DNA of 43,041 nt from a virus (lineage: Duplodnaviria; Heunggongvirae; Uroviricota; Caudoviricetes): positions 1 to 43,041 of the IMG/VR virus record IMGVR_UViG_2744054964_000002; one strand, 5' to 3'. Shown here piece by piece: positions 3,772 to 17,922 of this stretch; within the stretch, counting starts at the first letter, position 1, and every line of letters starts with the position of its first letter. A program made the position numbers and the translations under genes. The notes beneath the pieces are model-generated. The model was not told where the DNA came from. It did no database searches and saw only the letters and a program-made list of their open reading frames with translations.

Positions 3772-4529
3772 TCAGCCTCCGTCTCTGCGACATTGACAGG
3801 TTCGGCGTTGTCGACAGCAAGACTCATGTCATACATGCGTCGTTTCTCAACTGCGCCGATCACCTGTTTCTCTTCGGCGCTCAGCGCCACCCAGAACTCC
3901 TGATACTTAACGGTTCCAAGGCGCGCGGCGGACTCACCTTTTGCGATCAGTTCCGGGCGGCGGCTATCTGATTCATGGCCCGCATGAACCTCTGCCGTTG
4001 TTCCTTCAATTACTCGCTCTGCCTCGTCCTGGTCGAAGATGCCAGCGAAACCAAAGGCCAGACGCGCGCACTGGATCAGCGTCTTGTGGCGAAGCATGCG
4101 GGTAGGGTGGGACTGCCATGGCTGAGTGTTGCGTTTGCACTCTCCCATGTACTCGGTGACGATGGTCGGGTGCTTACGGTCTTTGCGGTAAATCTTGCAG
4201 GTACACGCGCCTTCCTCCTTGTCGTAAGAGAACTCCATGCCGTCAAACTGAGGATGCTCGTTGATAATGCGAGCCCATCCATCAACGCCGACGACCGGGA
4301 CAATCCCGCCTTTATCTGGGAATGCGTAAATCTCTTTGGTCCATGGGTTCAGGCCATACTGGTTGGCGACGATCAGCAGGGCTGTAAACTGCTCGTCCGT
4401 GACGTTGCCACCTTTGAACGCTGTATTCTTCAGCGTATTCATCAGGTCTGTACCGGCATCCATGCCGAGGCGTGCGGCCAGTTTCCCGGCCATGGTGGAA
4501 AGTGCAGTACTCATTGTTAAATCCCTCAA
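3768..4529 (-). CDS. recT: RecT-family single-strand annealing recombinase
   Basis: 253-aa ORF; core segment LLIVANQYGLNPWTKEIYAF...GVDGWARI is typical of RecT/Bet-like annealing proteins; paired with the YqaJ exonuclease. Confidence 0.9.
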   Translation of the reverse strand: MRDLTMSTALSTMAGKLAARLGMDAGTDLMNTLKNTAFKGGNVTDEQFTALLIVANQYGLNPWTKEIYAFPDKGGIVPVVGVDGWARIINEHPQFDGMEFSYDKEEGACTCKIYRKDRKHPTIVTEYMGECKRNTQPWQSHPTRMLRHKTLIQCARLAFGFAGIFDQDEAERVIEGTTAEVHAGHESDSRRPELIAKGESAARLGTVKYQEFWVALSAEEKQVIGAVEKRRMYDMSLAVDNAEPVNVAETEAE

Positions 4530-6348: not shown

Positions 6349-6426
6349 TCAACTTGAATGAGTGCCGGGATGTTTAGCCACGCCCGGCGCGTGCTCTCCT
6401 GCTATTCCCCAACAGCAAGAAATCGC

Positions 6427-6768
6427 TTACTCTTTAATTTCCCCAGCAGTAGAAAGGATATATTCATGCAAACCATGCGGACCGTGTGCCCTGACTGCGG
6501 AAGTGAGATGTTCAACCAGCCCGATGATTTTGACTTTGAGACAAATTTCACCGGCGTCAGTTGTGCTGACTGTGGTCGAGAAATCACTAAGGACGATGTT
6601 GTCAATCAGGCCACGGACACGGTCAAAAAACAGATCGACGACATGCTCAGGAATTCCCTGAAAGGAACTGGCTGGAAGTTCAAGTAACTTTAAAAGCTCC
6701 CCGGTCTGAGTAAGTACCTCGCTGGCGTCTACGTTAAGCAGTAGTGGCGCCGTTTTTTTATCTGCCAT
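6427..6768 (-). CDS. Hypothetical protein (113 aa); competes with the antisense ORF 6466-6687
   Basis: ATG at 6766-6768 preceded by GAGGAG RBS (5-nt spacer); same orientation as the surrounding leftward operon; followed by the candidate terminator at 6325-6348. No recognisable domain. Confidence 0.4.
   Translation of the reverse strand: MADKKTAPLLLNVDASEVLTQTGELLKLLELPASSFQGIPEHVVDLFFDRVRGLIDNIVLSDFSTTVSTTDAGEICLKVKIIGLVEHLTSAVRAHGPHGLHEYILSTAGEIKE
6466..6687 (+). CDS. Hypothetical small zinc-ribbon protein (73 aa); antisense to 6427-6768
   Basis: Internal ATG at 6466 with AAGGA RBS; paired CxxCG motifs (CPDCG ... CADCG, 19 residues apart) typical of a zinc ribbon; third-position GC looks higher than in the opposing frame (hand count). 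Confidence 0.35.
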   Translation: MQTMRTVCPDCGSEMFNQPDDFDFETNFTGVSCADCGREITKDDVVNQATDTVKKQIDDMLRNSLKGTGWKFK

Positions 6769-7313
6769 ACACACTCCTCTTTTTGTTTACCGTCAGCCCC
6801 TCGCAAAGAGCTGCTGGTAAACTTCGCCACACTCTCGCAGTGGCCGCGCACATGCCCTTGAGACCTTGTCGCTCATCGCCGCTCATAACCGGTGCGCGTC
6901 TGGCGTTCGCGCTGCTTTACCGGAGCTTGTTTTGATATAAGAACCTTGACCCATCACTACACAGGCTCGCCATTCGGCGACTCAGGGCGGCATCATTACT
7001 GCTGCATTGCCTTTAGGCTGCGGTCTGTCCGCTTTAGTTCTTCATTGGAATCACTCCTCTAAGTTGAATCAGCGCCCCATCATCGGAGCGCTTCAAATTG
7101 AGTGACTTATCAGCTCATCGCAGCGTGGTCCTCTACACCTACCGTACGCATACGGACTCAGTGCTTACCTCGATCCCATCGGGTGCCATTTCTTTTTGCC
7201 AGGAGAGCTACGGCTTGCCTGTCACTCAGTCTGATTTGTTAAAGAAGCAGGCGACTTGCTGTCCGCCGCTGGCTAACTTCGCTCAGCTGTCGATGTTTCG
7301 TTTCGATGAGCTG

Positions 7314-7342
7314 ATTATTAACTAATGGTTATTTTCAGTCAA
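7314..7342 (-). promoter_or_regulatory. Candidate leftward sigma70 promoter (possible pL)
   Basis: On the minus strand TTGACT (7342-7337), 16-17-nt spacer, then TAATAA/AATAAT (7320-7314); embedded in an AT-rich TGGTTA repeat region. Hexamer match only. Confidence 0.3.
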
Positions 7343-7460
7343 TAACCATTGGTTAATTATTTTGCCGTTGGTTATTAAGGTTATGATTTATTGGTTAATT
7401 TAGTTCTGTTATGGATTTGTGCAGTACGTGCTATGCTGCAAAAAACATCAGGAGGTAGCT

Positions 7461-7667
7461 ATGGAACGAGATGAACGTGCAGATGAACGAATAGCCTTCA
7501 TGGCTGGAGAGGTTGGGTGCGTAGTGTTCGAGCTGGTTTATAACGGAATTGAAATCAATAAGGACAACATTGTGGGATTTCTGGAAGGGAAGCGCAAAGC
7601 CGTAGGAAACGTGATCCATAAGGGGATGCTACGGGATGCGGCTGAGATGGTGCGGAAGGGCAAATAA
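7461..7667 (+). CDS. Hypothetical protein (68 aa)
   Basis: ATG at 7461 preceded by AGGAGG RBS and an extended -10 like element (TGcTATGCT, 7429-7437); convergent with the cI-adjacent cassette. Confidence 0.4.
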   Translation: MERDERADERIAFMAGEVGCVVFELVYNGIEINKDNIVGFLEGKRKAVGNVIHKGMLRDAAEMVRKGK

Positions 7668-7686
7668 AAACCCGGCGCTGGCCGGG
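7662..7686 (-). terminator. Rho-independent terminator ending the cI-adjacent cassette
   Basis: Perfect 6-bp GC stem CCCGGC-GCUG-GCCGGG (7671-7686) followed on the minus strand by UUUUUAUUU, starting 8 nt after the stop of the 7695-8045 gene. Confidence 0.6.
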
Positions 7687-7694
7687 TGATAGCG

Positions 7695-8045
7695 CTATTT
7701 CAAAACAAGTCCGTTTAAAGCATCAAGAATTTTAGAAACATAATTACCGAATACATAAACACAAAAAGCAAACACAACTGATAGAATGGCAGAAGAAGCT
7801 TTAAGTGTTGTCTTCATGGATTTTACTCCATTTTCGATTTCACTCAGCCTTGAGTCGATGCTCTTAATGTCTGATTTAATCTCAGCAATATCTCGCTTAA
7901 TGTATTCTACATCGGATTCTAAGCGTGCAACTCTGTATTGCATGTCATCGCCTCCGCCATTACCGTTGCCATGCCTCAAAGTATGCACGTTGAATTCTTC
8001 GTTAGCAACTGGTTGGCTTCGTTTGAGATATGCTGAATTTGCCAT
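7695..8045 (-). CDS. Coiled-coil protein with C-terminal transmembrane helix (XhlA-like architecture); cassette gene B
   Basis: 116-aa ORF; Gly-rich N-terminus (HGNGNGGGDD), heptad-like coiled coil (RLESDVEYIKRDIAEIKSDIKSIDSRLSEIENGVKSMK), hydrophobic C-terminal segment (AILSVVFAFCVYVFGNYV). Start is 1 nt after the stop of gene A. AT-rich by eye. Confidence 0.6.
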   Translation of the reverse strand: MANSAYLKRSQPVANEEFNVHTLRHGNGNGGGDDMQYRVARLESDVEYIKRDIAEIKSDIKSIDSRLSEIENGVKSMKTTLKASSAILSVVFAFCVYVFGNYVSKILDALNGLVLK

Positions 8046-8046
8046 G

Positions 8047-8472
8047 TCAGACTTTCCATTCTTTTGATAAGTAGAAATAACACTCTGAATCGTGAACTAA
8101 TCTACTTTTATCTTTATCATCAATGACATGAAGTGACAGTGTTACCTTGTAAACACCCTCTTCTTTAACAAGGATGTTCATCAGAGACATATTTTCAATG
8201 CTTACTGACTCACTTCCAGAGGTCGTGCCAGCCACAATAGGGTCTGATTGCAATGACTGACCACTACCGAAATCAATTCTCTGGTCGCCAAAAAATAGGT
8301 CTACATCAACACGATAGTTAACTTTAGTTTTAATAATTAGCCCAAAGGAAACGTCAATGCTGATTTTCCCTGAGTGCTCATCTGGCTTTATCCATGGCTG
8401 TGGATAATTTAAGGAGCGCGATATTTTACCGGGAAATATCTGGGATACATATAAAAATGAAATCTTTTCCAT
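8047..8472 (-). CDS. Hypothetical protein (141 aa); cassette gene A
   Basis: ORF with GAGGA RBS 6 nt upstream of the ATG, 72 bp downstream of the cI stop; AT-rich codon usage by eye; no recognised domain. Confidence 0.6.
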   Translation of the reverse strand: MEKISFLYVSQIFPGKISRSLNYPQPWIKPDEHSGKISIDVSFGLIIKTKVNYRVDVDLFFGDQRIDFGSGQSLQSDPIVAGTTSGSESVSIENMSLMNILVKEEGVYKVTLSLHVIDDKDKSRLVHDSECYFYLSKEWKV

Positions 8473-8544: not shown

Positions 8545-9321
8545 CTACAGCAGCACCGAGTACCAGAAGAGACGGCCAATTATCTCGACATCATCAATAT
8601 CAGCCTCTTCGTCTGGGTAGGAGTCGTTGTTGTAACTGCGGATGATCAGCTTCCCACCTGGCTTACGATACAGTTGTTTAATGCGCTTGAGTTGACCATT
8701 CCCGCCATCTGTCTGACCAATGGCATACAGTTTCCCATCAACTATGCGTTTGTTGTTCGTATCGACGGCTACAGTCGTACCATCCGGTATCACAGGTTCC
8801 ATGCTGTCGCCAGTAGCAGGGAAACACAGGATGCCAGACCCATCTGTGTTAGCTCCAACGCGGCGGAGGGTTGCCTTTGAGAACCTGAGCTTAAAACCAT
8901 TGTGATCTTCGCTGTGTACGCGTCCATCGCCACACGCAAATTCAATATCCTTAAGAAACGGCACTTCAACCTCGTCAGCAGGAAGCGGTGTGTTTTTATC
9001 CCAGGCGTCAACAGTTCCCCATTCAGATTCTGGAGGGATAGATGACTCCCTACGCAGTTCAGGTTCGGGATCATTCCTTCCGTATTCAAGCCACTCAGGC
9101 CGTACCCCAAGCCAGCGGCTAAGGGCAAGGATATTGGTTTGGTCTGGTATCGCTGATGCGTTAAGCCATTTCCAGATCCCGGGCTCAGATACAGTAATTC
9201 CTTGGGACTTCATAGCCTCTCTGATCCTACCAGCCTGCCCACGACCACCAACGCCAGCATCAAGCAATGCAGCGCGAAGTCTTTTCGAGAATTCTTCTTT
9301 TAAATCGTCTTTTTTAACCAT
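8545..9321 (-). CDS. cI: CI-like prophage repressor (N-terminal HTH, C-terminal LexA/S24-type autocleavage domain)
   Basis: 258-aa ORF; C-terminal domain contains the S24 serine motif (ATGDSMEP) and downstream lysine (KRIVDGKLYAIG); divergent from a cro-like gene across an operator-bearing intergenic region. Confidence 0.9.
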   Translation of the reverse strand: MVKKDDLKEEFSKRLRAALLDAGVGGRGQAGRIREAMKSQGITVSEPGIWKWLNASAIPDQTNILALSRWLGVRPEWLEYGRNDPEPELRRESSIPPESEWGTVDAWDKNTPLPADEVEVPFLKDIEFACGDGRVHSEDHNGFKLRFSKATLRRVGANTDGSGILCFPATGDSMEPVIPDGTTVAVDTNNKRIVDGKLYAIGQTDGGNGQLKRIKQLYRKPGGKLIIRSYNNDSYPDEEADIDDVEIIGRLFWYSVLL

Positions 9322-9405
9322 TCGTTAATTATCAATTAGAGTTGACATAACTGTCAGTTAAGATATAACCTTAACTCGTAGTTAATATAGTTAACGGAAA
9401 ACACT
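9322..9405. promoter_or_regulatory. OR-like operator/promoter region between cI and cro
   Basis: Palindromic TTAACT/AGTTAA half-site pairs (TAACTGTCAGTTA at 9348-9360; TTAACTCGTAGTTAA at 9371-9385; GTTAAC at 9391-9396) overlapping a strong rightward promoter: -35 TTGACA (9342-9347), 16-nt spacer, -10 TATAAC (9364-9369). Confidence 0.65.
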
Positions 9406-9651
9406 ATGAACCCAATGCAATTTGCAATCGAAGCTGTAGGCGGTCAAACCGCTGCTGCTCGCCTGTGTGGCCTATCGAACGTTGCTATTCACAAGTGGGT
9501 GAAGAACGCGGCGCTGCCTCGTACTGAGTACACAGAGAAAACCAACTATTCGCAGCTTTTGGCTGACGCATCAAATGGGCAGTTTACGGCTGAATGGCTC
9601 CGTCAAGCAGCTAACCCTGACCGAATTAAACAAGATTCACATGCCGCCTGA
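9406..9651 (+). CDS. cro: Cro-like HTH regulator
   Basis: 81-aa ORF, first rightward gene after the operators; HTH-like segment TAAARLCGLSNVAIHKWVKNAALP. Confidence 0.7.
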   Translation: MNPMQFAIEAVGGQTAAARLCGLSNVAIHKWVKNAALPRTEYTEKTNYSQLLADASNGQFTAEWLRQAANPDRIKQDSHAA

Positions 9652-17844: not shown

Positions 17845-17897
17845 TCATGTAAATCTGATATCGTCGCCATAGCTTCGTAGGTCGACAAAGAATTAAG

Positions 17898-17922
17898 AAC
17901 CCGCCATCGAGCGGGTTTTTTG
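17898..17922 (+). terminator. Rho-independent terminator (tR'-like)
   Basis: CCCGC-CATCGA-GCGGG stem-loop followed by TTTTTTG, about 50-70 nt downstream of the candidate pR' start. Confidence 0.65.

Follow-up and report, generated by a model that had tools for sequence, protein, structure and literature searches.

The stretch of DNA analysed in this study, hereafter the window, was 43,041 bp long and carried a lambdoid early region, with the leftward recombination genes bet and gamL to the left. Positions 7200–7700 (501 bases searched) matched E. coli 88COLEC (NZ_CP070906) with 100% identity. In rightward order, the region consisted of a long ORF-poor leader, a putative OL/PL region, a gene for a 68-aa protein, accessory genes, cI, a cro-like gene and a gene of the CII family. 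The stretch at 7314–7460 was AT-rich. The 68-aa gene (7461–7667, plus strand, ATG at 7461) belonged to phrog_3975, which has no known function. It was preceded by a Shine-Dalgarno sequence, AGGAGG, at 7450–7455 on the plus strand, and by an extended −10 element, TGcTATGCT, at 7429–7437 on the same strand, which was read from the sequence and is its predicted promoter. A terminator-like GC-rich hairpin with T-runs on both sides (7670–7687) lay between this gene and the convergent cI operon. Two leftward accessory genes (7695–8045 and 8047–8472, both minus strand) were followed by the cI repressor gene (8545–9321, minus strand) and, after a gap of 84 bp, by the cro-like gene (9406–9651, plus strand).

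Five copies of the motif TGGTTAWT were located within 7326–7399, at 7326–7333, 7350–7357, 7369–7376 and 7392–7399 on the plus strand and at 7341–7348 on the minus strand, in agreement with an earlier note on this DNA that had counted at least four. The whole 43-kb window contained 10 matches compared with an expected 2.13 ± 1.32, and none of 100 shuffled sequences reached 10. The inverted repeat that the earlier note had placed at 7325–7351 (AATGGTTATT and AATAACCATT, separated by TTCAGTC) was present, but its true position was 7324–7350, one base further left. It could be extended to arms of 20 nt (7314–7333 and 7341–7360) with 90% complementarity.

OL was set beside the cI–cro gap, and a pattern search followed; the element found in this way was a 15-bp dyad, WTAAC-N5-GTTAW, of which TGGTTAWT is the right half. 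The dyad had exactly 5 matches in 43,041 bp, compared with 0.13 expected, and these were divided into two at OL and three at OR, with none elsewhere in the window. A position weight matrix built from 56 distinct sites of the window and its relatives returned only the same five strong dyads when the 43 kb were scanned. The two sites on the left were OL1 at 7318–7332, which reads TTAAC-TAATG-GTTAT (TTAACTAATGGTTAT; half-site scores of 12.7 and 11.2 bits), and OL2 at 7342–7356, which reads ATAAC-CATTG-GTTAA (ATAACCATTGGTTAA; 11.4 and 13.6 bits). OL1 and OL2 were also present in relatives with the same CI N-terminal domain. Their centres were 24 bp apart, as were those of OR1 and OR2, and this spacing was invariant in the relatives. 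In the 10-bp inverted repeat, one arm belongs to the right half of OL1 and the other to the left half of OL2, with a −35 hexamer between them; a repeat of this kind arises wherever two palindromic operators are neighbours.

The promoter to which this hexamer belongs is the leftward early promoter PL (7314–7342, minus strand), with a −35 of TTGACT at 7342–7337, a spacer of 17 nt and a −10 of AATAAT at 7319–7314. The promoter scan classed it as sigma-70-like, with 10 of 12 hexamer positions matching. PL shared its alignment columns with the annotated pL of phi80, and its hexamers were conserved in the relatives. Its transcript would start near 7307–7308. OL1 covered the −10 and the spacer, and OL2 abutted the −35. 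The operator sites that the earlier note had proposed to overlap a leftward promoter correspond to these two dyads over the −10 and −35 of PL, and they lie near the extended −10 of the small gene, as it had also stated. Judged from the DNA sequence, 7318–7356 very probably holds CI/Cro operators that control PL.

The operator region on the other side, OR (9314–9385), lay between cI and cro and contained three dyads together with PR and PRM. OR3 (9314–9328, TTAACCATTCGTTAA) overlapped the PRM −10 and the start of cI, while OR2 (9347–9361, ATAACTGTCAGTTAA) and OR1 (9371–9385, TTAACTCGTAGTTAA) overlapped PR. On the strand of cI, OR3 is TTAACGAATGGTTAA, which contains the cI start codon ATG and reads TGGTTAA. 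PR, read from the sequence, had TTGACA at 9342–9347 and TATAAC at 9364–9369 on the plus strand. The promoter scan placed PRM on the minus strand, with its −35 at 9357–9352 and a −10 of GATAAT at 9333–9328. The first base of the cI start codon (the A at 9321) is 7 nt away from the PRM −10, and because of this position the cI mRNA transcribed from PRM is predicted to be leaderless, probably starting at the A of the ATG as in lambda. An extra GTTAA was observed beyond OR1, 9 bp past its right half (GTTAATATAGTTAAC, 9381–9394). The same tandem arrangement of GTTAA was seen after OL2 (GGTTAATTTAGTTAAG) in distant relatives (loci L043–L057).

The cI gene encodes a protein of 258 aa, in which residues 1–92 form the N-terminal DNA-binding domain and the C-terminal part is an S24 peptidase. 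The protein matched Peptidase_S24 (1.2e-15) and phrog_4, annotated as "transcriptional repressor". A Pfam search with the N-terminal domain gave no significant helix-turn-helix hit; this domain was 33% identical to that of lambda CI (tblastn) and matched DicA weakly, and this weak similarity suggests a helix-turn-helix domain. Residues 93–258 were 97% identical to HK225 CI, and residues 1–92 were unrelated to it. On this alignment, cI is a domain chimera whose recombination joint falls at the linker that connects the DNA-binding domain with the S24 domain. The combination of an HK225-like C-terminal domain and an unrelated N-terminal domain matches the change in operator sequence. The cro-like gene encodes a protein of 81 aa with a YdaS-type helix-turn-helix, and by analogy with lambda, Cro probably also uses the OL and OR operators, as a second protein beside CI.

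A search of viral contigs with CI residues 1–94 yielded 55 loci of about 8 kb each, with 62–100% identity. The dyad was present at OR in all 55 loci, at fixed offsets from the cI start, and at OL in all 54 that were long enough, the remaining contig ending before OL. The OL dyads of the relatives lay 0.9–2.9 kb beyond the cI start, a distance set by the intervening accessory genes. A pair of exact matches spaced by 24 bp was found at OL in 38 of the 54, and a single exact match in the other 16. The dyad pattern was not found outside OL and OR in the 55 loci. The C-terminal domain of CI in these loci ranged from 47 to 100% identity or was undetectable, and a homologue of the 68-aa protein was detectable in about 29 of them. 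A relative of Cro was encoded in 55 of 55, as was CI, so that co-occurrence cannot tell CI from Cro. When genome contigs (one genome per species) were searched with the CI N-terminal domain, no relative was found.

The reciprocal search of viral contigs, with the 68-aa protein, yielded 49 loci, 48 of which had readable upstream DNA. In 43 of these 48, the operator motif of the phage's own immunity type stood at the same position, including phages of the phi80 and lambda types. Arrays of GGTTAW occurred only in the five loci that also encoded the CI N-terminal domain, and none of the 43 loci lacking this domain had more than one stray dyad match. The motifs found beside the 68-aa gene included TGTKGATT (phi80), TATCACCGC/CAACACCGC (lambda-like), ATAAC-N4-GTTAT (HK639), ACAAC/GTTGT and ATAGC. 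A four-way alignment of the window, phi80, HK225 and HK639 showed near-identity up to 7308 and again from 7428, leaving an immunity-specific patch of only about 120 bp (7309–7427). Across these loci, the motif follows the CI N-terminal domain, together with Cro, and not the 68-aa gene. The comparison also shows how immunity specificity is exchanged in short patches between conserved flanks, one of about 120 bp at OL and another comprising the CI N-terminal domain, OR and cro. When TGGTTA was searched for in the prophage and its relatives, as the earlier note had suggested, it was enriched in the window and its parent dyad occurred only at OL and OR.

Several features of lambdoid operators were found together here: a dyad on both sides of cI, overlap with promoters, a spacing of about 24 bp that allows cooperative pairs of dimers, co-inheritance with the DNA-binding domain of the repressor, and a repressor of LexA/CI architecture. 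We consider it very likely, from these comparisons, that 7314–7412 is the OL/PL region of a lambdoid, phi80/HK225-like prophage of E. coli 88COLEC and the ordinary left arm of its immunity switch. CI dimers would bind OL1 and OL2 through the N-terminal helix-turn-helix domain and, positioned over the −10 and −35 of PL, would silence leftward early transcription in the lysogen. In lytic growth the OL sites would be used by Cro, and the three copies of the dyad at OR would control PR and PRM.

The 68-aa gene is a neighbour of the operator region and not a part of it. Its extended −10, which the earlier note had described, was present and was conserved in most relatives; the promoter sequence TGnTATGCT followed by aaaaaacatca was kept across phages of many immunity types. 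With a conserved promoter and a terminator of its own, the gene looks like an autonomous accessory gene ("moron"). Searches of Pfam, NCBIfam and PDB sequences with the 68-aa protein gave no significant match, and all 108 of its 108 database homologues were named hypothetical. An AF2 model built from 21 sequences had a pLDDT of 93 and consisted of three helices. Among PDB folds, the only notable match of the model was E. coli YmgB/AriR (2oxl_A), with TM scores of 0.76 and 0.83, an rmsd of 0.8 Å over 54 columns, 20% identity and E = 0.015. No sequence-level support was found for the likeness to YmgB/AriR, and neither sequence nor fold gave a match to a known sequence-specific repressor.

The earlier note had proposed that the repeats look like operators for a regulator other than that of the cI operators, possibly acting as a second control point for immunity or an anti-repressor; the regulator would be the 68-aa protein or some other factor. 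The repeats do lie directly upstream of the 68-aa gene, and four of the five TGGTTAWT copies are oriented towards it. However, the same dyad composes OR; TGGTTAW and TTAACT/AGTTAA, the latter of which had been assigned to CI, share the GTTAA/TTAAC half-site and are halves of one dyad that occurs only at OL and OR. The 68-aa protein of HK225 is 93% identical, yet the repeats in the homologous columns of that phage are of the phi80 type, TGTKGATT, which in phi80 are annotated as CI operators. The promoter of the 68-aa gene was found beside PL/OL in at least eight immunity types, each with its own repeat, and about 26 of the 55 loci kept the OL dyads without the gene. The predicted three-helix bundle, with YmgB/AriR as its only notable fold match, resembled no repressor. 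A separate regulator is thus very improbable, and a second control point is not supported either, since the motif is an OR half-site linked to the CI N-terminal domain and not to the 68-aa gene; the apparent lead to a second immunity system was therefore a false one. A separate operator like that of P22 immI was rejected because the motif does not differ from the OR half-site and shows no linkage to the 68-aa gene. Also very improbable is that the AT-rich palindrome of 41 bp acts as an RNA hairpin, a terminator or a DNA cruciform, or that the repeats are replication iterons. The terminator scan did flag 7317–7357 on the plus strand, with 17 pairs followed by a T-rich tail, but G-C pairs made up only 3 of the 17, and the palindrome is located upstream of the PL start with no rightward promoter or transcription unit before it; an intrinsic terminator was rejected on the weak stem and the lack of a rightward unit upstream. 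Two adjacent dyad operators yield such a palindrome automatically, which also argues against a hairpin or cruciform. As for iterons, the dyad was absent outside OL and OR, and the half-sites in the region of the replication genes were isolated single matches. Iterons of a replication origin were rejected on these counts and because the repeats are about 2.8 kb from the O-like gene.

CI/Cro operators at OL1 and OL2 would account for 7318–7356; further GTTAW-oriented half-sites without a matching left half were found beyond OL2, in an auxiliary OL3-like zone at 7369–7412 on the plus strand. Two of them were strong, TGGTTATT at 7369–7376 (scored over 7369–7378, 11.6 bits) and TGGTTAAT at 7392–7399 (scored over 7392–7401, 12.9 bits), and two were weaker, AGGTTAT at 7378–7384 and GTTAT at 7408–7412, all on the plus strand. 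With the weight matrix no third full OL dyad was found; candidates centred at 7368 and 7391 had a good right half and a left half scoring below 0. At 33 bp from the centre of OL2 the window reads TTAAG-GTTAT-GATTT, which is weak, and distant relatives have a half-degenerate dyad, TTAAC-N5-GAAYY, at this distance, which equals the OR2–OR3 spacing. Outside OL and OR, no more than three half-sites in the 43-kb window scored 11 bits or higher; for two strong ones to fall by chance within 80 bp of OL2 is very unlikely, with a rough estimate of about 1e-5. Conservation of the block 7369–7405 was seen in loci L005–L028, whose flanks varied. Of 46 distinct OL segments, 19 had a strong GTTAW half-site 24 bp from the centre of OL2 and 25 had one at 47 bp; in more distant lineages the half-sites stood instead at +14 (GTTAW) and +28 (TTAAC). 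Extra cognate half-sites were also found at the homologous place in phi80, HK639 and the ACAAC/GTTGT type. In phi80 they are direct half-site repeats, one pair of which is annotated as a CI operator.

From this arrangement, the zone at 7369–7412 is probably an OL3-like site of low affinity or one bound cooperatively, where CI would occupy the lone half-sites at 7369 and 7392 weakly or with the help of cooperativity. Because they lack a dyad partner, the lone half-sites are not explained by the standard mode of a dimer on a palindrome. It is possible, though we lean somewhat against it, that they have a function of their own. A related reading, to which we would give slightly less than an even chance, keeps OL1 and OL2 as CI/Cro operators and makes 7369–7412 a distinct element, through which CI represses or activates the promoter of the 68-aa gene or which serves as an OL3 looping onto OR3/PRM. 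The strength of the two half-sites and their improbability by chance, their conservation amid varying flanks, the cognate extras in the three other immunity types and the annotated phi80 pair at the same place all speak for such an element, as does the presence in some relatives of TGGTTAT, 61 bp from the centre of OL2, where the small-gene promoter would have its −35. On the other hand, the centres of the strong half-sites of the window would lie some 53 and 76 bp upstream of the predicted start of the small-gene transcript, outside the core promoter; relatives with lambda immunity have a full OL3 dyad and nothing over the small-gene promoter, and the arrangement of half-sites differs between lineages. 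Since cognate lone half-sites recur in several immunity types, they might even reflect non-canonical binding in which one CI subunit per lone half-site is held by cooperativity, which could couple the immunity switch to the divergent small gene or replace a palindromic OL3 in OL–OR looping; we regard this as rather unlikely.

The positions of the phi80 operators and pL used for comparison were those of the GenBank annotation of NC_021190 and X13065. Phi80 and HK225 resembled the window in having homologous flanks, namely the leader up to 7308 on the left and, from 7428 rightwards, the small gene and its promoter. They also had PL in the same columns, two dyads spaced by 23–24 bp that cover the −10 and −35, with extra direct half-site repeats after them, and a CI C-terminal domain of 83–97% identity. 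In contrast, the operators of phi80 are AATCMACA/TGTKGATT where the window has TTAAC-N5-GTTAA, and the CI N-terminal domain and Cro of phi80 are unrelated to those of the window. Counted from the cro side, the OR sites are spaced by 24 and 33 bp in the window and by 33 and 24 bp in phi80. In lambda, dyad operators common to OL and OR overlap the divergent early promoters, with neighbours 24 bp apart; lambda CI has an S24 C-terminal domain, and its mRNA from PRM is leaderless. The logic of the window is the same as that of lambda, with dyads shared by OL and OR on the early promoters, a spacing of 24 bp and an S24 repressor. However, the dyad of lambda is 17 bp long and that of the window 15 bp, with unrelated sequence, and the third OL site of the window is not a full dyad, unlike the OL1–OL2–OL3 series of lambda. 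The window also differs from lambda in the absence of an N gene and in its leader, which resembles that of HK639 at the 3' end only.

HK639 had the half-site core ATAAC/GTTAT, the same small gene beside OL, and a leader and first leftward gene partly in common with the window. It differed in its dyad, ATAAC-N4-GTTAT, the spacer of which is one base shorter, and its CI N-terminal domain was only 29% identical. Cross-immunity between the prophage of the window and HK639 would be unlikely on these grounds, and the two operators may represent a divergence of immunity by a change of spacing. The HK639 operators were located at 4255–4345 and 6870–6935 of its locus (L002). The closest deposited phage repressors were those of the Shigella Stx phages 75/02 and POCJ13 and of phiSTEC1589-Stx1c, with 71% identity in the CI N-terminal domain; we know of no operator annotation for these repressors. 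IMG/VR loci of the same 71% class (L035–L042) kept TTAAC-N5-GTTAA at both OR and OL, but had fewer exact matches than the window (two at OR and one at OL) and a different gene beside OL. With 71% as the best match of the CI N-terminal domain among the deposited phage records searched, the immunity type is apparently uncharacterised. The literature was searched for phi80 operators, HK phages and the operator type of the window, and nothing on these operators was found. For annotation, the gain is an operator consensus, TTAAC-N5-GTTAA, and the placement of PL, PR and PRM for an immunity type that has no close deposited match.

In Megablast comparisons with deposited phages, 7230–7687 aligned with HK225 at 84% identity, 7230–7308 aligned with the phi80 leader just downstream of pL, which holds the nutL boxA, and 6700–6821 aligned with HK639 beside its annotated putative pL and putL-like RNA. 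The leader of the window (6775–7307, minus-strand transcript) was about 530 nt long, GC-rich and ORF-poor, and extended from the predicted PL start to the first leftward gene (ATG at 6774). No N-like ORF was present in it, and it may contain an element for RNA-based antitermination whose sequence is of a new type. The possibility that the whole PL leader is a putL RNA of the HK639 type was rejected, as only about 55 nt aligned, 3' end with 3' end. Rfam searches at gathering thresholds gave no match in 6700–7700.

RefSeq/PGAP annotated two plus-strand ORFs in this area, at 7098–7325 ("hypothetical protein") and 6358–6687 ("ECs_2282 family putative zinc-binding protein"). The ORF at 7098–7325 sits inside the PL leader and enters OL1, and it is probably spurious. 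The ORF at 6358–6687 opposes a leftward ORF similar to HK639_45 (6427–6774), and its strand conflicts with the HK639 annotation. The sole Rfam match in the window was isrJ, an Hfq-binding sRNA, at 17848–17920 on the plus strand, with 58.7 bits compared with a gathering score of 37.
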